A DNA stretch of 17,725 nucleotides from an uncultured Candidatus Sumerlaeota bacterium (GCA_964440195.1 CAYTRP010000005.1:1757-19481), one strand, 5' to 3'; counted from the first letter of the stretch, positions 2,306 to 13,513 are shown. Notes: generated by a model from the sequence alone, not told the origin. Program-made: numbers and translations.

Positions 2306-2659
2306 TCAATGCTCATGCCCGCAATCCGGGCCATGTTCATGATCGTGTTCGTGCTCGTGCTTGTGGCCTTGCTGGCCCAAGGGCGTGTCGAGGTTATCCT
2401 CCAACATGGCCTCGAACTGGCCGATCAAATAGCCAATCGTCTCCTCGCGCGAATGCAGGTGCTGTCCATAGTTTTGCCACATGAAGGCACTGTAGCGAGC
2501 CGCGGCGAACATCATGGCGGCGGCCAGCTTGGAGGGGGAGGCTTCGCGCGACAGGTGGTTCGCCAGGTTGATGAACTCGTCCACGGTGTCCATGAAGGCA
2601 GCCATCTCCTCCTTGGTGGGTTCGCCAAAGTCCGGGGCGCCTTCCTGTTCGCTGCTCAT
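2306..2659 (-). CDS. DUF3144-like small protein with a C-terminal His-rich tail (HKHEHEHDHEHGPDCGHEH)
   Basis: The core EEMAAFMDTVDEFINLANHL...LAAAMMFAAARYSAFMW resembles DUF3144 as I recall it. Its start overlaps the stop of the upstream SGNH gene by 4 bp (2656-2659). About 10 of the last 19 residues are His, which suggests metal binding. Confidence 0.6.
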   Translation of the reverse strand: MSSEQEGAPDFGEPTKEEMAAFMDTVDEFINLANHLSREASPSKLAAAMMFAAARYSAFMWQNYGQHLHSREETIGYLIGQFEAMLEDNLDTPLGQQGHKHEHEHDHEHGPDCGHEH

Positions 2660-3717
2660 GGTGCGCTCCTTGTCTCGTCGAGGGTCGCCCGGAGCGCCGG
2701 CTCCATCGCTTCGGCCATCTGAAGAAAGCCGAGATCCGTCGGGTGAATGCCGTCCACGGTCCCTTCCTCCGGCCCTCGCAGCAGCGTTGCGCCGTCGACG
2801 ACGCGGTAATTGCCAATGCCCTTTTCCTTCAGGATGGCTAGTGCCTTCTCGAAGTGCGCATCGGAAGCGCGGCGCTTGATGTGCCCAACCAAGATCAGCG
2901 GCACGCCGGGGCGATGTTCGCGCAGGCGCTCGATGAAGGGGACGAAGCGCTCGTCGATCAACTCGTCGGTCATGTTGGGGAAGGCGTCGAGCACGTACAT
3001 TTCCGCGTCGATTTCGCCGAGGAAGTCCGCGATTTCAGGCTCCATCTTGGCCGATCCCGAGAAGCCCAGGTTCACCGTCGGCCAATCCAGCCAACGTGCG
3101 AGAATCGAAGTATGGGCCATCCCCGGGCGTGACGCACAGCCACCCTGCACGATGGAGGTGCCGTAATGCACGACAGGCTTGCGGGTATCCACGGGCGCGG
3201 GCTCGATGCGCGCGCCTTCGTCAACGCCGATGCGCAGGTAATCCACGTTGTGGTAAAGGGGCAGATAAACGCGGTACTCGGTCATCTCCGCCGGGCGGTT
3301 CTCGGTCATCGTGCGCGTGGTGTCGCCCTCCAGCGGCCGCCCATTCGCGACAAACACCCACTTGCCGTCGTCGCCACGGCGATAAAGGTCGAGCCCACTC
3401 ATGCCCGTGGCGGGCATGTGCGGCATGGCGCCGCCGCCGCTCCAGTTCGCGTGAACCGCCGGGCTGTCGGTGACAAAGCGCACGGACACGCCCGCCGTGT
3501 TGTGGCTGAGGCGCCAGACCAACGGCGTCACCAATTCCTCCGCCCGCGCGGGCAAACGCGAGTAAGTCGTGGAGGTCTCCACCCAACCGCGCCCTTCCAG
3601 CGTCAACTCGTGGGCGTCCACCCATTGGCGGGTGTCGGGGGGGTGTTCCTCATTGGTATCAGCCGCCACGGCTCCCACGAGAAACATCATCATCGTCGCC
3701 ACCAGCATCTTTGACAT
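2656..3717 (-). CDS. Secreted SGNH/GDSL-type hydrolase (esterase/deacylase-like) with an N-terminal beta-rich domain
   Basis: The start is chosen at the internal Met (MSKMLVATMMMFLVGAVAA|DT, a signal peptide). The longer ORF back to 4035 has a Trp/Arg-rich non-protein-like N-terminus. The SGNH block I (GTSIVQGGCA) and the catalytic DxxH block (DGIHPTD) are near the C-terminus. Confidence 0.6.
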   Translation of the reverse strand: MSKMLVATMMMFLVGAVAADTNEEHPPDTRQWVDAHELTLEGRGWVETSTTYSRLPARAEELVTPLVWRLSHNTAGVSVRFVTDSPAVHANWSGGGAMPHMPATGMSGLDLYRRGDDGKWVFVANGRPLEGDTTRTMTENRPAEMTEYRVYLPLYHNVDYLRIGVDEGARIEPAPVDTRKPVVHYGTSIVQGGCASRPGMAHTSILARWLDWPTVNLGFSGSAKMEPEIADFLGEIDAEMYVLDAFPNMTDELIDERFVPFIERLREHRPGVPLILVGHIKRRASDAHFEKALAILKEKGIGNYRVVDGATLLRGPEEGTVDGIHPTDLGFLQMAEAMEPALRATLDETRSAP

Positions 3718-4636
3718 CGGGGAACCGCCTTTCCGCGTCGGGATCGTGAAGCAATGCCTTCCGGACGTAGCCATCGAACAACTCGTCGAGGTGGTCAAGC
3801 CAGCGCTGCTGGACACCGAGGACAATTCGCCATGCAGGATAGTACACAATCGCGAGGGCAACCGACAACAGGACACAAAAAACCGCCGTCCCCATTGCCA
3901 AAGACCCTTCGAGGCGTTCCACCACTTCCGTGACCGCGATATAGACAACCAGCATGCCCACCGAAGCCAAGCCAGCCAGCGCAAGAATCGGCACCGATGC
4001 AACCAGCAGTTCGAGCGTGGACCTCCCGAGACCATGTCTTTGCTTGATTGCGTGGAGGATCATGATCGGGGCAGCGAGTCTCGCCATCGACCAAGCGCCG
4101 GCGTACATCGCAAGAGTGACGGTCGCCACCAGGAGAATGGCTTCACCCCAGCCCGCGCCAATCACCCAGGCAAGGACCACCGAACCAATCAAGCCGAGCA
4201 ACCCAAAGGCGGCGGCGAACCGTGGCGCGAAGCGCGCAAATCCCAGAAGCGGGATACATGCGATCTCACTCCCTCGACAACCCGCCAGCCAGAGTTCCTT
4301 CAGAACCTCCGGGATCATGATGTTCTCATGGATCGTGGTTGAGTGGCGCCGGAAAGCAAATACTTGCTGGCAAATTATCGTCCCATAGAGAACAATCATG
4401 GAGAGCCAAAAATTGCTCCACAACAGATAGAGCGCCACGCCTATCCCAGCAAGGGAGAAAAACGGGAAACCAACCCCAAATGCGAGATGGCGCCGCCCCC
4501 TCGGCGAACGAAACCCCTCTTGCTGCACTCTTCGCCCCATTTCCTGCATTGTGACGTACAGGTCTTCGTTGACTCGCGCCGCGAGTACCGGCTCCGCCTT
4601 GCGCAGCCACGCGGGAATGGGTTCGGTGGGGTTCAT
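3659..4636 (-). CDS. Polytopic membrane protein, paralog A1 of an unrecognised family (~7-8 TM)
   Basis: The N-terminus MNPTEPIPAWLRKAEPVL, the motif ELWLAGCRGSEI and the C-terminus QQRWLDHLDELFDGYVR...DPDAER are all shared with A2 (5646-6566). There is an ATGA overlap with B1 at 4633-4636. Its 3' end overlaps the SGNH gene start by 59 bp. Confidence 0.6.
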   Translation of the reverse strand: MNPTEPIPAWLRKAEPVLAARVNEDLYVTMQEMGRRVQQEGFRSPRGRRHLAFGVGFPFFSLAGIGVALYLLWSNFWLSMIVLYGTIICQQVFAFRRHSTTIHENIMIPEVLKELWLAGCRGSEIACIPLLGFARFAPRFAAAFGLLGLIGSVVLAWVIGAGWGEAILLVATVTLAMYAGAWSMARLAAPIMILHAIKQRHGLGRSTLELLVASVPILALAGLASVGMLVVYIAVTEVVERLEGSLAMGTAVFCVLLSVALAIVYYPAWRIVLGVQQRWLDHLDELFDGYVRKALLHDPDAERRFPDVKDAGGDDDDVSRGSRGG

Positions 4637-5649
4637 GCTTTCCGTCCGGCGTCGGGATCGCGGATGATTTTTTCGCGCATGTGGCGGTCGAACTCGAGAT
4701 CGGCGATGTGCAGGGCGTCCTCAAGGCGTTCGTGGAAATACGCGCCGGGGCCAAGTCGGTGGGGAATCATGATCAGGCAAGCCATCAGAAGGAAACCCAC
4801 CTGAAGTCCGAGAACAAGCACGGGTGCCATAACAGCCATGTCGTACAGGGTTCCAATAATGAGCGCCAACACCAGGAAGAACACAGCCCAGAGAGTCAAC
4901 GCGGCCGGCCCAATACCCGGCGGGGCGTAGATATTGCTCGGCGCCTTCCCAACCTCCCACGCGGGGCGGATGAAGCCCGGTGGAATGCCGTCAAACCGGT
5001 CCATCACGGATGTCAACGGATTGAATCTTCCGTACCGCAGGTAAACACAGAACAAGTGGAGCCACACGGTTATCAGGATATAAACGACGATCCCCGCGGC
5101 ACCCACATGCGAGACCGGTTCCCAAGGCAGAACCAGGAGCGGGTACAAAAGGGCGAAAGGCAACCAGGTCCATTTCTTCATTGGCCGGTGGCACAAGACC
5201 ACATGCAGCGCCTTCACCATGTCGCGTCCGCGCACCCCCGACATCCACAAATCCTGCAACAGCGGGTTTGGCCCGGTGGCTTGCACAAGGACTGCCATGG
5301 GAACCTGTGAATGGAGAGTCCGGCGGAAGTGTCTTCCAAGAAGAATCAGACCCTGCCGGACAAGAAAGGCGAAGGCAATGCTCAGGGCGATTGCCACCAA
5401 TCCATTGATCCAGAACACATTCAACTGTCGCTGCGTTTCCAGCAGAAGCCCGAAGAAAACCATGGTGGCGGCAAGGACCGAAACGCATCCCCACCGTTGC
5501 ATGAGAAGCGGCGCGATGAAACCCGCCGGTGCCCACCGCACCCGTTTCTCCCGCACCACCATCGCCTCCACGAACGGATCGTCCTTCCACGCCTCCAGCA
5601 GCGGGTCGCGCGGGTGGAGCCATGCGTTGAGGTGGGCGCGGATACTCAT
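4633..5649 (-). CDS. Polytopic membrane protein, paralog B1 of the same module
   Basis: The N-terminus MSIRAHLNAWLHPRDPLLEAWKDDPFVEAMV, the motif DLWMSGVRGRDMVK and the C-terminus FDRHMR...DPDAGR are shared with B2. It has an ATGA overlap with A2 at 5646-5649. Confidence 0.6.
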   Translation of the reverse strand: MSIRAHLNAWLHPRDPLLEAWKDDPFVEAMVVREKRVRWAPAGFIAPLLMQRWGCVSVLAATMVFFGLLLETQRQLNVFWINGLVAIALSIAFAFLVRQGLILLGRHFRRTLHSQVPMAVLVQATGPNPLLQDLWMSGVRGRDMVKALHVVLCHRPMKKWTWLPFALLYPLLVLPWEPVSHVGAAGIVVYILITVWLHLFCVYLRYGRFNPLTSVMDRFDGIPPGFIRPAWEVGKAPSNIYAPPGIGPAALTLWAVFFLVLALIIGTLYDMAVMAPVLVLGLQVGFLLMACLIMIPHRLGPGAYFHERLEDALHIADLEFDRHMREKIIRDPDAGRKA

Positions 5650-6566
5650 GGCTGCCGCTCCGCGTCGGGGTCGTACAAATGCCTGGTACGGACGTAGATG
5701 TCGAACACGGCGTCGATGTGGTCAAGCCAGCGCTGCTGGAAAACGCGCGCCAGGGCGACGGCGGGGGGTCGCAGGACCATCAACAACACCGTGACCACCA
5801 TTAGGTAAAGGGCCACGCCGATGGCAAACGAGTAACCCTGCTGCATCGCCCACATGACGATCACCGCGAGAATTCCCTGGTTCATCAGTCCCACGAATCC
5901 CACGAGCGCGGTGACCAGGGCAGCCCACCACAGGGTGACGCCGAGCCGGCCCGCCCCGGCAAATCGCATGCGCGCGCGGTGGATCAGAAAGAGCGGCGCC
6001 ACCAATCCCGATGCCCACCACCCCATTTCGCGGGCGCACGCAAACACGACGGCGACGATCACCGCCGATTCCCAAAGGGGAATCAGGCCGCCACCCAATA
6101 CCAGCACCGCTGAAGCCCATGCAGCCGCGCCGGCAAAGGCCGTCGAGCTGGATGGCTCGGTCCGCGCAAGGCGCAGCGCCATCGCCGCCCCCAACTCGCT
6201 CCCCCGGCAGCCCGCCAACCAGAGGTCGCCAATCACCCGCTCGTCCATCAGGTTCTCCGCCGCCGTCCGCTTGCCGCGCTTGAGGATCAAAACAATCTGG
6301 CTGAGCGGCACGGCATACAGGAGGAGCATCGCCGCCGGAAAGTGCACCGGCAGAAGCAATATTCCGAGGACTACTCCGGCAAACACGAAGCCGGGGCTTG
6401 CAACATTGCGCAAGAGGAAGCGCCTGCCGCGCGGCGTCCGCCATCCTTCGCGCCGCACGCGCGCCGAGGCATCGCAGATGCACTCAAACAAGGGCAGGTG
6501 CGCGCAGAACGAGAGAACGGGCTCGGCGCGCCGCAACCAGGGGGGGAGAGGGTCTTGGGGGTTCAT
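5646..6566 (-). CDS. Polytopic membrane protein, paralog A2
   Basis: MNPQDPLPPWLRRAEPVL...DLWLAGCRGSEL...QQRWLDHIDAVFDIYVR...DPDAER. It has an ATGA overlap with B2 at 6563-6566. Confidence 0.6.
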   Translation of the reverse strand: MNPQDPLPPWLRRAEPVLSFCAHLPLFECICDASARVRREGWRTPRGRRFLLRNVASPGFVFAGVVLGILLLPVHFPAAMLLLYAVPLSQIVLILKRGKRTAAENLMDERVIGDLWLAGCRGSELGAAMALRLARTEPSSSTAFAGAAAWASAVLVLGGGLIPLWESAVIVAVVFACAREMGWWASGLVAPLFLIHRARMRFAGAGRLGVTLWWAALVTALVGFVGLMNQGILAVIVMWAMQQGYSFAIGVALYLMVVTVLLMVLRPPAVALARVFQQRWLDHIDAVFDIYVRTRHLYDPDAERQP

Positions 6567-7555
6567 TCGACCCGGCCAGCATCAGCATCCGACAAGACGA
6601 CGTGCCGAACATGGAGGTCGAACAAGCGGTCGACTTCCGTGAACTGCGATTCTATGTACTCGAAGAGCCGAGGATCGCGTTCCAGAGAAGCCACGAGCAG
6701 CAAGATGATGGAACTGATCAAGAAGATAATCTGGACGAAGAGACCAACTGTGACCGGGAGCCCAAGGTGCACGCAGAACCTGTAGGTGAGCATGCCAGCG
6801 ATCGAGGCAGTCACCAATAGGCCCGTCGACAGAATCAGGGCGGTGGCGTTGCGGAAGTCAATTCCGGCTGAACTCACTAAAACGGGACGTACGAAGGGTG
6901 GTGGCGGATCCCCTGTCAGCGCCCACGCGCCGGACAGCGGATTGGAGTTGCCATGCCGAGCAAGGTGAAAGACCCCCCGCATCCAAACAAGCAGCAACAG
7001 GTAGAGCACCAATCCACCGATGCCGTGCATGCCAACTGGTTCCCCAATCGCGATGAAGGCACCAATGGCGACGATGCAAAACAAAAAGACGGGCAGAGGC
7101 GACGACTCGGCACGATGCCCCACGTAGACCACCTTGACGATGTCCCGACCGCGAATGCCCGCCATCCAGAGGTCGCACAGGGCCGACGCGGCTCCCTGTT
7201 GCTTGATAAGCGATGCGATGGAAGTAATGGCCGCTTTCTCCGGCGGTGGAAAAAGACCGGCAAGTTTTCCGGACAGCGCGACAAAGACTCCCAGCAGAAG
7301 CGAACTCAGGAGCACTGTCATGGCTCCCCCAAATCCAAGGGCCCTCAAGGTCCGATGGGATGTCGAGAGAACGGCAAAGAGAAGAAACCACCGGAACCAG
7401 AAGGTCTGCGTGATATCATGCCGCAGCCAACCGCCGCTCCATCGCACCCGTCGCTTCCGCGCCACCATCGCCTCCACGAACGGATCATCCCTCCACGCCT
7501 CAAGGAGCGGATCGCGGGGATGGAGCCAGCGGTGGAGGCGGTCTCGGAGGTTCAT
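6563..7555 (-). CDS. Polytopic membrane protein, paralog B2; start set at the internal Met at 7555, while the ORF remains open to 7840
   Basis: From Met 7555 the protein reads MNLRDRLHRWLHPRDPLLEAWRDDPFVEAMV, which matches the B1 N-terminus. The 95 upstream codons (7556-7840) are low-complexity and have about 64% GC3 against about 80% in core genes, so they are probably non-coding. However, ATG 7838-7840 lies 1 nt after the upstream gene's TAG, so the long form cannot be excluded. Confidence 0.5.
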   Translation of the reverse strand: MNLRDRLHRWLHPRDPLLEAWRDDPFVEAMVARKRRVRWSGGWLRHDITQTFWFRWFLLFAVLSTSHRTLRALGFGGAMTVLLSSLLLGVFVALSGKLAGLFPPPEKAAITSIASLIKQQGAASALCDLWMAGIRGRDIVKVVYVGHRAESSPLPVFLFCIVAIGAFIAIGEPVGMHGIGGLVLYLLLLVWMRGVFHLARHGNSNPLSGAWALTGDPPPPFVRPVLVSSAGIDFRNATALILSTGLLVTASIAGMLTYRFCVHLGLPVTVGLFVQIIFLISSIILLLVASLERDPRLFEYIESQFTEVDRLFDLHVRHVVLSDADAGRVE

Positions 7556-7841
7556 GTTGAAAGTGTCGGTTTCCCGCTTTTGATCGAACTGCCGTGGAGT
7601 GCGCAAGCTCGCTTGCGCTTTCGGCGTCGGAAGTTTGCTTCCGATGCTCCCGTGATGCAAAGTCGAAGCCGAGGCTGGTGGGAGCGCCCCAAGCAAGCTT
7701 TGGGGCGCAAACAGCGGCAGCAAGCGGCCGCACTCCAGAGTGCGACGGCGAGGCGTTGTGACGTCTTGCTCGTGGAGAAGTGGTTCATGGAGTGTCGGCT
7801 CAGTGAAGCGAACGGCAGACGAGGATTCACGGCTCTTCATC
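7556..7841 (-). promoter_or_regulatory. Internal spacer or regulatory region in the minus-strand operon with two strong palindromes
   Basis: GCGCAAGC-TC-GCTTGCGC lies at 7601-7618. A 9-bp stem, 7-nt loop inverted repeat GCGCCCCAA-gcaagct-TTGGGGCGC lies at 7684-7708. GC3 is lower than in flanking genes. Confidence 0.3.
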
Positions 7842-9323
7842 CTACTGATCCCGATAGAGTGTCGACTGGAGGCGTGCCATCCGGTGAAGTCGGATGACGA
7901 AGGGGATCTCGATTCCGAACGGTCGCAGGAGAATCAGAAATGCCGCGCCGAGAATGAGAACAACCGCGGCAAGGAAACCCGAGGTTGAGTTCGACTCCAG
8001 AGCAATGCTTGTTGCAATCAGTACTATCGCGAATGCGATCAGGCCCACGAGCGATCTGTACGATGACAACAGCCAGAGATGGATTGGACGTATTGCCGCA
8101 ATGCCCAAGATGGCGTCGGCAAGGATCAAGGCGAGTAGGTCTTGGCGATACAAGGAAGGATAATCGTTCAGTATCCAATCTTCCATGATGTGACGAGCAA
8201 CGATGAGCAGGATCGTCATGGTCACGCAGGCCGTGACCACGGGCGCACGGAGGATTGCTGCGCCAAGGCGAACGTTGCCAACAAGGAGTGGCACCGGCTG
8301 GCGTCGCCAGGCAGAAAACTGCATCCATGCCCACGTCGCCGCGAGGGCGGCCATGCAGCAGGGAAGGTAGAGCGGCAAGTCTCGCTCGACCAACACGGAA
8401 AGGACGCCATAGTCCGTACTGTATCGTTGGAGACTCAGGAGGATCAGCATGCCCACATAGCCGATCACGGAGGCGACCAATATGCCGGGCCGCAGCCGGG
8501 CCACCTGCGTTGTGTGTTGGAAGAGAAGGGTCGCTTGGCGACTTGCGGAAAGTCGGCGCCACAACACCCTCGCGGAGTCTGGGTCGGTGTCTGCTGCATC
8601 CGCTGGCCGATCCATGCGATAGATTGCCCAACCCGGAATGGAACGAAAGGCCAGCACACTCGCCATCGCGGAGAGGGTCATCCAGGAGATGATGACGCCC
8701 ACGATGAATCGATCTTCGAAGTTGGCCACCCACTGCCCCCTGCCGTAGCGTGGATAGATATAGTTCATTAGAAAACTAAAGAGATACATTGCGAGGAAGT
8801 GGGACCCAATAACGAGGATGACTGCTCCAAACAATCGCATCAGCGACGGTCGAGCCAATTGCGTGAAGAGGCATCCCAAAACAAAGGCGAGCGAAGTGGC
8901 TGTCGCCAACAGGAAAGCAATCATGGTCATTACCATCCAAGATTGCGGAATGAGCGGCCATCCCAATATGCCGTGAACAAAGGCAAAAGAAAGCAGATAC
9001 GCGAAAACCGCTACTCCGGTCATGACGAGCGGCCAGAAGACAAGGCCCACCTGAATCGCCCGGGGATTCATCCCCGACAAGTACAATTGCTCTGCCAAGG
9101 ATGGCTCAAGAGCAGGTTTAAGGAGTACAAAGAGCAGAGGGACCAACAGAAAAACGGCAAGCACGGCGAATGGCGGTGAGTCACCACCAATGAAGGCAAT
9201 GGTTGCATACGCCATCATGAACGGGGCGACAATCCACAGCCTCCTCCCACTCCGCCGCCACGGCGTGGCACGTTGCAGGATCGGGTTGTCGTCGAGCAGC
9301 GCGCGCCATCGCGACAGCATCAT
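7842..9323 (-). CDS. Large polytopic integral membrane protein (~12 TM, 493 aa), family not recognised
   Basis: Hydrophobic segments run throughout the protein. It has an ATGA overlap with the amidohydrolase gene at 9320-9323. Codon usage is consistent with the rest of the operon. Confidence 0.6.
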   Translation of the reverse strand: MMLSRWRALLDDNPILQRATPWRRSGRRLWIVAPFMMAYATIAFIGGDSPPFAVLAVFLLVPLLFVLLKPALEPSLAEQLYLSGMNPRAIQVGLVFWPLVMTGVAVFAYLLSFAFVHGILGWPLIPQSWMVMTMIAFLLATATSLAFVLGCLFTQLARPSLMRLFGAVILVIGSHFLAMYLFSFLMNYIYPRYGRGQWVANFEDRFIVGVIISWMTLSAMASVLAFRSIPGWAIYRMDRPADAADTDPDSARVLWRRLSASRQATLLFQHTTQVARLRPGILVASVIGYVGMLILLSLQRYSTDYGVLSVLVERDLPLYLPCCMAALAATWAWMQFSAWRRQPVPLLVGNVRLGAAILRAPVVTACVTMTILLIVARHIMEDWILNDYPSLYRQDLLALILADAILGIAAIRPIHLWLLSSYRSLVGLIAFAIVLIATSIALESNSTSGFLAAVVLILGAAFLILLRPFGIEIPFVIRLHRMARLQSTLYRDQ

Positions 9324-10315
9324 GGTCTCCTCTCCCCCGCCGAACCCTCGGGGAAGAAGAGGCTTCTCACCTCGTCCGTCATCTCCGCCAACCGTTCGAT
9401 ACGGCGCGGGTCCACGGCGGGCGCGAGTTCACACGCCAATTTCACCTCCCGCGCCATGTCGAGGAATTCGTTGCTGGCGAGGCTATCGGTGCCGAGGTGC
9501 GTTGGGATGCCGGCGTCGAGAAGCCGCTTTAGCGGAAACGCGCCGCGATTGAAAAACACATGGGTGCCGGGGCAGACGACGACATGGCACCCGGATTTCG
9601 AGAGAATCGCGATGTCCATGTCGTCGATGTCGTTGCAGTGTGCCAGCAATGTGCGCGGGCCCAGCACGCCGAGCGACGCGAGATGCGGAATGGGGCGCAG
9701 GCGCGGGGGTTCCCACTCCGGGGGCAACACGCCGGCGTCGTGGAGGAAGTCCTTGAGAGGGCCCGATCCCTGCTCCAACATTTGGGTCTCCCCGGGTGTC
9801 TCGGCGGCGTGGATGCACAGCCATTGGCGGCGCCGCGCGGCCTCGGCATGGGCGGAGAGGAGCAGGGGCGCGGTCGTGGTGTAGGGTGCGTGTGGCGAGA
9901 GCCCCCACGCGTGGCGGGGTTCGAGGGGCTGCGCCTGCTGGCGTGCGAGGGCCCGCTCGACCGTCTCCCGCGCGCGGGTGGCGTCGAAGGCGATCATCTC
10001 GGTGAAGGAAAGCACCGGAAAGGGTGCCTCGCCCAGCAGGCGGGGAGTCACGCCCATGGCATCGATATCAAGCAGCGCGGTCGTGCCGGAGTCGGCCATC
10101 TGGCGAAGGGCCCGTCGAATTCCGGCGCGCACGGCCTCGGGACCGGCGGCGCGCTTGAGGACGACGAGTCGCTCCAGCCAACCAACGAAGTCGATCCCCA
10201 TGGGGAGAGCGCCCCGGAGGAAGGAGAGTTCGAGATGGGCGTGGGCGTTGAAATACACGGCTAACCTGGGCGTTGGGGAGAGGTGATGGACTTGCCACGG
10301 AGGCGCGGAGGACAC
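9320..10315 (-). CDS. Amidohydrolase-superfamily protein (chlorohydrolase/nucleoside-deaminase-like metal-dependent hydrolase)
   Basis: It has an N-terminal HxH motif (NAHAHLE) and a C-terminal block LAHCNDID...VVVCPG...LGTDSLASN typical of the MtaD/SsnA/cytosine-deaminase amidohydrolase branch. GTG at 10315 has no obvious Shine-Dalgarno sequence. An alternative start at GTG ~10250 (MYFNAHAHL...) is preceded by AGGT. Confidence 0.55.
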   Translation of the reverse strand: MSSAPPWQVHHLSPTPRLAVYFNAHAHLELSFLRGALPMGIDFVGWLERLVVLKRAAGPEAVRAGIRRALRQMADSGTTALLDIDAMGVTPRLLGEAPFPVLSFTEMIAFDATRARETVERALARQQAQPLEPRHAWGLSPHAPYTTTAPLLLSAHAEAARRRQWLCIHAAETPGETQMLEQGSGPLKDFLHDAGVLPPEWEPPRLRPIPHLASLGVLGPRTLLAHCNDIDDMDIAILSKSGCHVVVCPGTHVFFNRGAFPLKRLLDAGIPTHLGTDSLASNEFLDMAREVKLACELAPAVDPRRIERLAEMTDEVRSLFFPEGSAGERRP

Positions 10316-10460
10316 GGAGAAAAATGAAGAAGTACGAACGGGTCCGACGGGGAGTCCATTGATCCTGCCCGGTGCCCTTTGTGCCTTCGTGGTAAATCAA
10401 TTCTTGGGCCGATGTCCGCGAGGGCCGCAACCGGGAGCTTGCCGTTTCCCGCGCCCATGG

Positions 10461-10490
10461 TTGAATTTCCGGTTTCGGCGTCCGTATAGG
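10461..10490 (+). promoter_or_regulatory. Candidate sigma70-type promoter: TTGAAT, 18 nt spacer, TATAGG
   Basis: The -35 box is at 10461-10466 and the -10 box at 10485-10490. They lie about 50 nt upstream of the ATG of the SPFH gene, in the 226-bp divergent intergenic region. Confidence 0.3.
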
Positions 10491-10541
10491 TGTGGGTACA
10501 CCCCTTGCGTGTCCGCCAGTCATTCGACCAGGAGAGACCAA

Positions 10542-11579
10542 ATGCTGCCGATCCCGTGGGTCATCACCGTGCAGGAGAAGAGTGCCGCCATCATCGAACG
10601 CTTCGGGAAATTCTCCCGCGTCGCCAAGCCGGGCGTCAACCTGCTGCTGCCATTCGAGGCCGTCTCCGGCCGGGTCAGCCTGCGCGTGCACGAACTCTAT
10701 GTGAATGTGGAAACGAAGACGCTCGACGATGTGTTCGTCAAGATCACCGTCGCCGTGCAGTATCACATCATGCCCGACCGCATCCGCGAGGCGCACTACG
10801 AGTTGGCCAACCCGCAGATGCAGATCGAGTCGTTCGTGTATGACGAGGTCCGCGCCGTCGTGCCGAAGATGAAGCTGGACGACGTCTTCCAGAACAAGGA
10901 CGAGATCGCCAACGCGGTGAAGGGCGGCCTCGAGGACACGATGAACCAGTATGGCTACAACATCGTGAAGACGCTGGTGAACGACATCGATCCGGACGCC
11001 AACGTGAAGAGGGCAATGAACGAGATCAACGCGGCCCAGCGCATCCGCCGCGCGAGCGAGGAGCGTGGCGAGGCGGAGAAGATCCTGCGCATCAAGCAGG
11101 CGGAAGCGGAGGCGGAGTCGATGCGACTGCGCGGCAAGGGCGTCGCCGACCAGCGCAAGGCCATTGTGGACGGCCTGCGCGACAGCGTGCTGGAATTCTC
11201 GCAGGCCGTTCCCGGCACGCGCCCCGGGGATGTGATGCAGCTTGTTGTCATGACGCAGTATTTCGACACGCTGAAGGAGGTCGGCGCGCAGTCGCGCACC
11301 AACACGATCATGATCCCTCACTCTCCCAGCGCCGTGCGCGGCATCGCCGAGGACCTGCAATCGTCCGTCATGATCGGCAGCCTCGTCGCCGCCAAGGTCA
11401 GAGAGGCGAACGAGGACATGCCCCTTCCGCCGCCGGACAATTCCGGCTCGACCACCGAAAGCGGCGGCGGCAACTCGGAGAGCCCGATCAGCAGTTTTTC
11501 TCCCGTCGAGGAGTTTGATCCCAAACAAGCCGCCCGCGAGGAGGAGCCGTATCCCCGCACGTCGCCACCACGCAAGTAG
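10542..11579 (+). CDS. SPFH/band-7 (stomatin/prohibitin-like) domain protein with a low-complexity Ser/Pro/Glu-rich C-terminus
   Basis: Start ATG at 10542 with RBS GGAGAG at 10531-10536; the upstream part of the listed ORF is a GC-rich shadow frame. It has an SPFH core (IIERFGKF...VNLLLPFE...KTLDDVFV...) followed by a coiled-coil, Ala/Glu-rich segment. There is no N-terminal TM helix. Confidence 0.65.
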   Translation: MLPIPWVITVQEKSAAIIERFGKFSRVAKPGVNLLLPFEAVSGRVSLRVHELYVNVETKTLDDVFVKITVAVQYHIMPDRIREAHYELANPQMQIESFVYDEVRAVVPKMKLDDVFQNKDEIANAVKGGLEDTMNQYGYNIVKTLVNDIDPDANVKRAMNEINAAQRIRRASEERGEAEKILRIKQAEAEAESMRLRGKGVADQRKAIVDGLRDSVLEFSQAVPGTRPGDVMQLVVMTQYFDTLKEVGAQSRTNTIMIPHSPSAVRGIAEDLQSSVMIGSLVAAKVREANEDMPLPPPDNSGSTTESGGGNSESPISSFSPVEEFDPKQAAREEEPYPRTSPPRK

Positions 11580-11588
11580 GAGAATCCC

Positions 11589-11849
11589 GTGGGCGTAAAG
11601 AAGCCGATTTCGCCAGAGCCCTCGCGCACGCTGGACATCACGCTCGACGTGTGCCCGATGACGTTCGTGAAGACGAAGCTGGAACTGGAGGAGATGGAAC
11701 CGGGAGCGATTCTCGAGGTCCATGTCCGCGACGGCGAATCGCGGCTGAATGTCGTGCGCTCGTGCAGGCAGGAGGGGAATGTCGTGCATGTGGAAGAGCC
11801 AATGGGGGACGGGATTTGGCGGTTGTTGATTGGGCGGAAAGGCAAGTAG
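11589..11849 (+). CDS. TusA-like (SirA/YedF/YeeD family) sulfur-carrier protein
   Basis: LDITLDVCPMTFVKTKLELEEMEPGAILEV contains the family's CPxP active-site signature. GTG start with RBS AGGAGA at 11578-11583. Confidence 0.65.
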   Translation: MGVKKPISPEPSRTLDITLDVCPMTFVKTKLELEEMEPGAILEVHVRDGESRLNVVRSCRQEGNVVHVEEPMGDGIWRLLIGRKGK

Positions 11850-11927
11850 ATCGGACGAATCAATCGGACATGACCGATTCGCCGGAGGAATTCAAAAAAG
11901 AAACAATTTCCCAAAAGGCCCCACCAC

Positions 11928-12776
11928 TTGCCCGTCGAACGCTTCACCAACGACCAGATCGAACGCTACGCGCGGCACATCATCCTGCCGCAGGTGGGTG
12001 GCAAGGGCCAGCGCCGCCTGCTCGATTCGCGCGTGCTCGTGGTGGGCGCGGGTGGGTTGGGGAGTCCCGTGTTGCTTTATCTCGCGGCGGCGGGCGTCGG
12101 CACGCTCGACGTCGTGGACTTCGACGCGGTGGATGCGTCCAATCTGCAGCGGCAAGTAATCCATTCGACGGCGAGTATCGGACACCCCAAGGCCCACTCG
12201 GCGGCGGAGGCGATTCGCGCACTGAATCCCGACGTCAACGTCGTCGTCCACGAGACGGCGCTGTTGCCGGGCAATGCGCTGGATCTGTTTGCCAAGGCCG
12301 ATGTGATCGTGGAAGGGAGCGACAATTTCCCGACGCGGTATCTTGTCAACGATGCCGCTTTTTTCGCGCGCAAGCCACTGGTCAGCGGGGCGTTGTTCCA
12401 GTTCGAGGGGCAGGTCACGGTCTTCCCCAACGACGGTGGCGCGGATTCGCCGTGCCTGCGGTGCCTGTTTCCGGAACCGCCCCCGCCGGGGCTGGTGCCG
12501 TCGTGCCAGGAAGCGGGAATCCTCGGCGCCATCCCGGGGATTGTCGGGAGCGTGCAGGCCACCGAGGTCCTCAAGCTGCTGCTCGGCATTGGCCAGCCGC
12601 TGGTGGGGCGCCTGCTGACGTTCGACGCGCTGGCCATGCGGTGGCGCGAGATTCGATTGCGTCGCAATCCGCGTTGTCCCCTCAACGGGGATGCGCCCAG
12701 CATCACGACGGTGCTGGACGATTACGGTCAGGCGGCGGCTGGCTGCAACGCGAGGCCCTTGCCGGAGAATTCATGA
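11928..12776 (+). CDS. ThiF/MoeB/HesA-family E1-like adenylyltransferase (no rhodanese domain)
   Basis: ERYARHIILPQVGGKGQRRLLDSRVLVVGAGGLGSP is the Rossmann/ATP-binding motif, with CLRC and Cys-containing motifs downstream. The only plausible start is TTG 11928; no ATG or GTG exists in the open frame after the stop at 11871. It is preceded by an AT-rich patch at 11891-11918. Confidence 0.65.
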   Translation: MPVERFTNDQIERYARHIILPQVGGKGQRRLLDSRVLVVGAGGLGSPVLLYLAAAGVGTLDVVDFDAVDASNLQRQVIHSTASIGHPKAHSAAEAIRALNPDVNVVVHETALLPGNALDLFAKADVIVEGSDNFPTRYLVNDAAFFARKPLVSGALFQFEGQVTVFPNDGGADSPCLRCLFPEPPPPGLVPSCQEAGILGAIPGIVGSVQATEVLKLLLGIGQPLVGRLLTFDALAMRWREIRLRRNPRCPLNGDAPSITTVLDDYGQAAAGCNARPLPENS

Positions 12777-13513
12777 GCGACTTTCCCGACGCCCCCGTTG
12801 ACCTTCCCTATGACGCGCTTTTCCTCGGCGCGCATCCCGATGACGTGGAGATCCTCGCCGGCGGAACCGTTGCACGTCTGGTCGCCATGGGGCGGCGTGT
12901 GCTGGTGGTCGATGCCACGCGCGGCGAGATGGGGACGCGCGGGACACCCGAAGAAAGAGCGCGGGAGGCCGCGGACGCCGCCAGGATTCTCGGCGTTCCC
13001 CGGTTGAACCTCGATCTCCCGGACGGCCATGTGGGCGGCGACCTCCCGGGCGCCACGCGCGCGATGGTGCGCCTGCTTCGACACGCTCGTCCTCGCACCG
13101 TCTTCACGCATGAGCCGGACGATCATCATCCCGACCACAACGCGGTGAGCCGCGCGGTGAAGGACGCTTTTTTCCAGGCCAACGTGCTGAAGTATGAAAC
13201 CGGGCAACCGCGCCACAAGACTCGCCGAGTGTTTCACTTTGTCGGGACGCGTGACCGCTGGCCCCCGCCGCCGTCGTTCGTCGTGGACATCACCGACGCG
13301 TGGGAAACGAAGCTCGCGGCGCTGCGCGCGTTTCGCTCCCAACTGCACAATCCGGATTACGTGGGGCCCGAGACATACGTCAGCAGCGACATCGCCTGGC
13401 ACTTCCTGGAAGGCCGGGCGTCCTTCTTTGGTTCGTTGATCGGGGTGCGCTATGCGGAGGGTTTCCGGGCCGTGGCTCCCTTGCGGATCGACGACCCCAC
13501 CCAGCTCGCGTAG
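12773..13513 (+). CDS. PIG-L/LmbE-family N-acetylglucosaminyl deacetylase (BshB/MshB-like)
   Basis: AHPDDVEI (the HPDD motif), HPDH and the overall LmbE pattern are present. ATG 12773 overlaps the ThiF TGA (ATGA). The listed 620-aa ORF is this gene plus an upstream shadow extension. Confidence 0.65.
   Translation: MSDFPDAPVDLPYDALFLGAHPDDVEILAGGTVARLVAMGRRVLVVDATRGEMGTRGTPEERAREAADAARILGVPRLNLDLPDGHVGGDLPGATRAMVRLLRHARPRTVFTHEPDDHHPDHNAVSRAVKDAFFQANVLKYETGQPRHKTRRVFHFVGTRDRWPPPPSFVVDITDAWETKLAALRAFRSQLHNPDYVGPETYVSSDIAWHFLEGRASFFGSLIGVRYAEGFRAVAPLRIDDPTQLA

Follow-up and report, generated by a model that had tools for sequence, protein, structure and literature searches.

A tandem array of four paralogous membrane proteins in an uncultured Candidatus Sumerlaeota bacterium points to an undescribed inner-membrane protein family

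We analysed a stretch of 17,725 nucleotides (hereafter, the window) from an uncultured Candidatus Sumerlaeota bacterium (GCA_964440195.1, CAYTRP010000005.1:1757-19481), which carries four consecutive minus-strand genes for related polytopic membrane proteins. As judged from sequence searches, these proteins belong to a family that is real, rare and undescribed in the libraries searched. We tentatively propose, and with some reserve, that this is a new inner-membrane family whose subunits form a hetero-oligomer, which would not transport by itself but would dock or regulate, as a platform, a cytoplasmic partner whose gene lies elsewhere.

The genes are transcribed in the order B2-A1-B1-A2, the letters denoting two paralogue classes, and all three internal junctions are ATGA stop/start overlaps when read on the coding strand. 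B2 (6563-7555, minus strand, 330 amino acids), the first gene of the array, encodes WLHPRDPLL (7502-7528), DLWMAGIRGRD (7142-7174) and the C-terminal segment FDLHVRHVVLSDADAGR (6572-6622). It overlaps at 6563-6566 with A1 (5646-6566, minus strand, 306 amino acids), where the corresponding segments are WLRRAEPVL (6513-6539), DLWLAGCRGSE (6195-6227) and FDIYVRTRHLYDPDAER (5655-5705). A1 in turn overlaps at 5646-5649 with B1 (4633-5649, minus strand, 338 amino acids), which has WLHPRDPLL (5596-5622), DLWMSGVRGRD (5221-5253) and FDRHMREKIIRDPDAGR (4642-4692). The last gene, A2 (3659-4636, minus strand, 325 amino acids), overlaps with B1 at 4633-4636 and encodes WLRKAEPVL (4583-4609), ELWLAGCRGSE (4265-4297) and FDGYVRKALLHDPDAER (3728-3778). 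The preliminary description of this DNA, made from the sequence alone, had the coordinates, lengths and overlaps of the four genes right. A scan of the window for sigma-70-like promoters and convincing terminators found none between the genes.

Both ends of the array required a decision on gene boundaries. The longest open reading frame (ORF) of B2 extends to 7840, and the NCBI-derived entry P0006 (425 amino acids) corresponds to this long form. The family profile aligns to the long form only from residue 96, which is the ATG at 7555; because homology to the profile and to B1 begins there, we set the start of B2 at this codon. The 95 extra codons traverse a hairpin-rich intergenic element that is open in the B2 frame, giving P0006 a spurious N-terminal extension of 95 residues (...ECGRLLPLF...SKLPTPKAQASLRTP...). 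At the other end, A2 finishes with an acidic tail of 21 residues (...RFPDVKDAGGDDDDVSRGSRGG; 3659-3716), and the same DNA in another frame, as we read it from the ATG at 3716, encodes the signal peptide of a downstream SGNH esterase; with this start the two genes overlap by 58 bases. In the metagenome locus L003 the counterpart of A2 terminates just past DPDAER and the esterase gene begins 8 bases further. Because the L003 counterpart stops there, A2 in the window seems to have been lengthened recently by read-through, which would have produced the overlap.

The two paralogue classes proposed earlier were borne out by pairwise comparison. Identity is 37% between A1 and A2 across their whole length (E 1e-54) and 32% between B1 and B2 (E 1e-32), while class A and class B proteins resemble each other weakly but collinearly from end to end (E 2e-4 and 6e-3). 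The three motifs that had been picked out by eye occur in all four proteins, partly degenerate in class A, and are exactly the three blocks kept across the wider family; since the same blocks are conserved that widely, the motifs are not a product of chance. All four proteins align to almost the whole of the family profile, with E-values from 2e-63 to 2e-48. Measured by significant pairwise links within the family (22-25 for the B proteins, 11-12 for the A proteins), class B is nearer than class A to the main body of the family.

None of the libraries assigned the proteins to anything known, in agreement with the preliminary description. For the four proteins, Pfam, NCBIfam and PADLOC returned nothing, and Pfam and NCBIfam remained empty even at E ≤ 10. 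When 47 members of the family were scanned singly against Pfam, NCBIfam and PHROGs, no family was matched by more than one member, and PHROGs gave a single stray match. A search of all PDB chain sequences with the family profile produced hydrophobic noise only, no relatives were detected on viral contigs, and two fold searches were unconvincing. A confident ABC-2 or CPBP profile match, which the preliminary description had named as contrary evidence, was found neither for the four proteins nor for any of the 47 members. As a provisional definition, members of the family have about 300-440 amino acids and begin with a WLRRxDPxL...AFRxRR block; a first transmembrane (TM) hairpin is followed by a DLWxxGxxG block and another four TM helices, and an ADxxFxxFxRxxxxxDPD block lies at the C-terminus.

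We analysed topology and conservation on 54 aligned members of the family. The number of TM helices in each of the four window proteins is six, as seen from hydropathy and from the AlphaFold2 secondary structure of B1 and A1, and not the seven or eight suggested previously. Both models have all six helices (mean predicted local distance difference test score, pLDDT, 77.6 and predicted template-modelling score, pTM, 0.75 for B1; pLDDT 84.4 and pTM 0.76 for A1). In the B1 model pLDDT peaks, at 89-96, in exactly the three conserved cytoplasmic blocks, and in the A1 model it is more evenly high. Positions conserved in at least 60% of the members, in B1 numbering, are confined to residues 1-36 (F.xWLRRxDPxLxAEDxNxxYxAFRxRR), residues 114-153 in the TM2-TM3 loop (LPxxxxxVF...DLWLxGxxGRxIxEAxYLE), a lone tryptophan, W231, in the TM4-TM5 loop, and residues 313-334 in the C-terminal helix (ADxxFxxFxRxxxxxDPD). 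Within the TM helices no position reaches 60%.

The charge distribution places these blocks inside the cell. The mean number of lysines plus arginines is 9.7 in the N-terminus, 8.3 in loop 2-3, 5.4 in loop 4-5 and 6.9 in the C-terminus, compared with 0.1-0.6 in the three outer loops, which are short (medians of 1, 14 and 4 residues). Because positive charge is concentrated in those four segments, the positive-inside pattern assigns both termini and all conserved blocks to the cytoplasmic side, and leaves the outer face nearly unexposed. In four of the 54 members TM1 and TM2 are missing and the N-terminal block runs straight into the central block, so that these two blocks must lie on the same side of the membrane and TM1-TM2 must be dispensable. 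Such members, with four TM helices instead of six, include two at locus L005 (8154-9080 and 9055-9981), which share their array with two full-length members, and one at locus L007 (10016-10999). The latter has no family gene beside it and closes a series of overlapping genes, which encode a histidine kinase and then two large proteins without a family match.

The family is narrowly distributed. When 1.84 billion cluster representatives were searched exhaustively with HMMER, a profile built from seven sequences found 53 clusters at E ≤ 1e-3, mostly full-length matches of 300-440 amino acids. Word-index searches with single proteins gave very few relatives and with the family alignment only four; scans of the collections with narrower alignments yielded three genome loci and one metagenome locus. 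The fetched loci were searched with the family hidden Markov model, after which gene starts were fixed. The majority of the members that could be placed come from Sumerlaeota metagenome-assembled genomes, two of which carry four consecutive family genes: in L005 these overlap by 26, 8 and 8 bases, and in L006 one junction is an 8-base overlap and the other two are gaps. Two family genes are present in each of four metagenome loci, L001, L008 (20-base overlap), L003 and L015 (in both of the last two, B then A with a 4-base overlap), and various loci (L004, L007, L012 and L013/14) hold a single family gene each.

The genes flanking the family vary from locus to locus and include GH31, DnaJ, CysZ, histidine kinase, ribosomal protein S6, SSB, LptF/G, CysS, UvrB, TruB and PMT glycosyltransferase genes. 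An all-against-all BLAST of the flanking ORFs of five distant loci and the window found no neighbour common to distant loci; the sole shared neighbour was an amidohydrolase, present in the window and in the syntenic L004. No ORF with both a Walker A and an LSGGQ motif was found in the fetched flanks of any family locus, and the window itself contains no ABC_tran domain or ABC ATPase and no substrate-binding protein, as had been noted. In L013/L014 (8001-10677), from a Sumerlaeota lineage present on many contigs, a gene for a PMT/ArnT-type (GT-C) glycosyltransferase begins 29 bases after the singleton; no other neighbour in the Sumerlaeota loci examined is related to the envelope.

These loci bear on how the array arose. 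Each window gene has its own nearest relative in metagenomes (A1 at 83% identity, B2 at 64%, B1 at 52% and A2 at 50%), and class A is known solely from the narrow lineage of the window. In L003 the counterparts of B1 and A2 precede the esterase gene, and L015 carries a B-like gene followed by a counterpart of A1. The syntenic genome L004 has Band 7 and amidohydrolase genes, an HpcH aldolase gene, one B-like gene and the esterase gene, and thus only a single family gene. The order of events was likely a B-like ancestor, then a B-A pair, then B-A-B-A, and the final duplication likely predates the split among these relatives. The duplication appears old, because each of the four genes has a separate closest relative elsewhere. 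The AB-to-ABAB history put forward in the preliminary description is to this extent plausible, supported by the separate closest relatives and by the B-to-A pairs with 4-base overlaps in L003 and L015. The accompanying idea of an obligate complex of A and B was not supported, given the restriction of class A to a narrow lineage, the single B-like gene of L004 and the other singletons.

The analysis shows that the genes are paralogous and overlap, how the proteins lie in the membrane and where they are conserved, that they match no known family and that tandem arrays recur; on these results we build the following mechanism. Three helical hairpins, that is, the six TM helices, would anchor each subunit with both termini inside and little outside. 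The three conserved cytoplasmic segments may come together as a single small helical domain at the inner face of the membrane; this domain would do the work, and the hairpins would be anchors and the surfaces through which subunits meet. From an ancestral B-like gene a derived partner, A, would have evolved, and duplication of the resulting B-A pair would have followed. The overlapping stop and start codons would hold the four products in fixed proportion for a hetero-oligomer based on B and A; that the subunits hetero-oligomerise is probable, judging by gene overlap and paralogy. Such a complex might then dock or regulate, as a platform, a cytoplasmic partner that is not encoded nearby. We place just short of even the view that this is a new type of complex, made of two to four paralogous subunits joined via variable hairpins, with a conserved three-segment cytoplasmic domain of a fold unseen in solved structures and no nearby ATPase or dedicated partner, and restricted to Sumerlaeota and the lineage of the window.

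Several points weigh against this proposal. Singletons (L004, L012, L013/14 and others) indicate that hetero-oligomers are not required by the family, and physical contact between the subunits is something we infer only. A platform is, moreover, a weak and non-specific function. The best matches of the A1 model among membrane proteins are ABC-2 type domains, which would point to transport, and a hydrophobic substrate could still have a path between the TM helices, poorly conserved as these are. The sequence data do not support a transporter role for the array, and the transporter, flippase or envelope machine suggested in the preliminary description is not favoured: conservation is cytoplasmic, TM positions stay below 60%, the outer loops are tiny and TM1-TM2 is sometimes missing.

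The structural matches just mentioned raise the alternative that the proteins are extremely diverged type V (ABC-2-like) domains, a B-A pair forming a heterodimeric permease that, with an ATPase encoded elsewhere, exports or flips a hydrophobic or lipid-linked substrate. We consider this unlikely, and equally so its corollary that the conserved N-terminal helix and the TM2-TM3 loop are elbow and coupling helices docking the ATPase. Among the top 60 structural matches of the A1 model there are six different type V ABC domains, which have the longest alignments among natural membrane proteins: CcmB (score 8.1, alignment length 179), Cdr1 (7.8, 179), ABCG2 (7.5, 166), Rv1217c (7.3, 174), ABCA3 (7.2, 192) and NosY (7.1, 170). 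This recurrence is a hint, from the model, of a similar six-helix arrangement, short of membership. The family shares with type V domains the six TM helices with both termini cytoplasmic, and heterodimeric ABC-2 systems such as ybhS-ybhR typically have paralogous permease genes side by side. In type V domains the coupling helix is a point of contact with the ATPase, and the conserved blocks lie where such contacts are made. An elbow helix and re-entrant helices between TM5 and TM6 are hallmarks of the type (PMC8386196). Short helices precede TM1 in both the B1 and the A1 models. However, the similarity was not reproduced with B1, which has no type V match in its top 60. Foldseek found nothing (best E 0.8, TM-score ≤ 0.22), comparison of the family profile with CcmB and YadH of E. 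coli by hhalign gave a probability of 0.1%, and ABC-2 profiles, including ABC2_membrane in Pfam and NCBIfam, matched none of the 47 members. Between TM5 and TM6 the loop, with a median of 4 residues, leaves no space for re-entrant helices, and the A1 model has two contiguous helices there. Some members lack TM1-TM2, core helices of the type V fold, and, as described above, no ATPase is linked to the family. The evidence thus falls short of type V membership: there is no sequence or profile signal, linked ATPase or re-entrant space, TM1-TM2 is dispensable and the B1 model is silent. The family differs from the type V domains (CcmB, NosY, Wzm, Rv1217c, ABCG/ABCA) further in its long cytoplasmic TM4-TM5 loop and its conserved C-terminal helix. 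One further candidate match had a score within the noise of all-helical proteins, with about one-third of the chain aligned at 11% identity, and no homology was inferred from it.

Other alternatives take the neighbourhood or the variability of the array as their starting point. In two-part O-acyl transfer a polytopic membrane protein hands an acyl group to a periplasmic SGNH protein, and the array could by analogy be the membrane half of an envelope-modification system working with the downstream secreted esterase, which we find improbable. In all three loci of the lineage (the window, L003 and L004) an SGNH/GxDLY gene follows the family gene or genes; this direct succession of a polytopic membrane protein gene and one for a secreted SGNH-fold esterase is what the lineage has in common with PatA/PatB-type (MBOAT/AT3 plus SGNH) systems. 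The glycosyltransferase gene after the L013/L014 singleton encodes another envelope-modifying enzyme. Yet the linkage is confined to close syntenic relatives and is probably a matter of synteny, since the pairing is missing from distant loci, where the neighbours are ribosomal protein S6, SSB, DnaJ, GH31, CysS and UvrB. Unlike the PatA/PatB-type proteins, the family has no Pfam match to MBOAT or Acyl_transf_3, no family-wide histidine or other polar residue in the membrane, and scant periplasmic surface. Tandem paralogues might also constitute an island of immunity or defence genes, directed for instance at phage or membrane-targeting toxins, that expanded by duplication under diversifying selection. 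Immunity gene islands typically contain divergent polytopic paralogues in arrays that lack a fixed partner, and the TM parts of the family are highly variable, but we hold this origin to be very improbable. PADLOC matched neither the four proteins nor their neighbours, the family neighbourhoods hold housekeeping genes rather than toxin, mobile-element or defence genes, and viral contigs yielded no relatives. Conservation falls on a cytoplasmic domain and not on an exposed surface, and the start/stop overlaps suggest stoichiometric co-assembly instead of independent variants. The CPBP/Abi proteases (PF02517), similar-sized polytopic bacterial membrane proteins that often occur in tandem paralogous arrays, resemble the family in these respects, but it has no Pfam match to them, no family-wide Glu, His or Asn in the membrane, and no TM position conserved at the 60% level for Glu/His motifs.

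Downstream of the array lies the gene of the secreted SGNH/GDSL esterase (2656-3716, minus strand; GxDLY and Lipase_GDSL_3 domains), with the signal peptide MSKMLVATMMMFLVGAVAA; this gene is likely co-transcribed with the array. Upstream, an amidohydrolase gene (9320-10315, minus strand; aminofutalosine deaminase/TRZ-ATZ-like, 68% identical to the one upstream of the L004 family gene) is the probable first gene of the same-strand cluster. It forms an ATGA overlap with a gene for another polytopic membrane protein (7842-9323, minus strand, 493 amino acids, about 11-12 TM segments), in whose place L004 has the HpcH/HpaI aldolase gene. A spacer of 286 bases separates the gene of the 493-residue protein from B2, and whether this gene belongs to the same unit as the array is uncertain. 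The 493-residue protein has no Pfam or NCBIfam match, BLAST detected no internal duplication in it, and no kinship with the A/B family emerged, hhalign giving a probability of 1%. Two parts of it, the N-terminus (NPILQR...R) and the stretch LAEQLYLSGMNPRAIQ, resemble ABC-2 permease signatures. The suspicion that this protein and the central DLWxxG motif of the array carry ABC-2 signatures was rejected as evidence, as hhalign aligned exactly that stretch at only 1% and Pfam gave no match for the protein.

The spacer itself (7556-7841, core approximately 7580-7760) contains, on the minus strand, several perfect GC-rich stem-loops, for example GCGCAAGCGAGCTTGCGC, with a fold z-score of -2.1. It occurs as one copy in the window and in none of the fetched loci, and the window scan gave no Rfam match; it may be a dispersed intergenic repeat of the kind that occurs in genomes of the Planctomycetes-Verrucomicrobia-Chlamydiae (PVC) group. 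On the divergent strand are genes for a Band 7 protein, a ThiF plus BshB1-like stretch, RecF and a GH57-like enzyme. The 620-residue ORF at 11651-13513 (plus strand) is probably two genes, as its BshB1 match covers only residues 388-612; the counterparts in L004, L009 and L010 are a ThiF-like gene of about 285 amino acids and then a PIG-L/BshB1-like deacetylase of 246 amino acids. The arginine- and histidine-rich ORF of 573 residues at 10068-11789 (minus strand) is a shadow of the plus-strand Band 7/HflK-like gene (10359-11579); it matches no family and can almost certainly be discounted as a gene.

At present the family is of limited practical value, being rare and narrowly distributed, and it is best seen as a well-defined new domain of unknown function that merits a family entry. 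It is a candidate for a new membrane-associated cytoplasmic module, or for an ATPase-less offshoot of the ABC-2 fold. If the proposal is true, poorly studied and mostly uncultured bacteria would hold a protein family, and perhaps a fold, that is absent from Pfam, NCBIfam and the PDB, and its repeated growth into translationally coupled arrays of paralogues would provide a clean case for the evolution of a hetero-oligomer from a single subunit.

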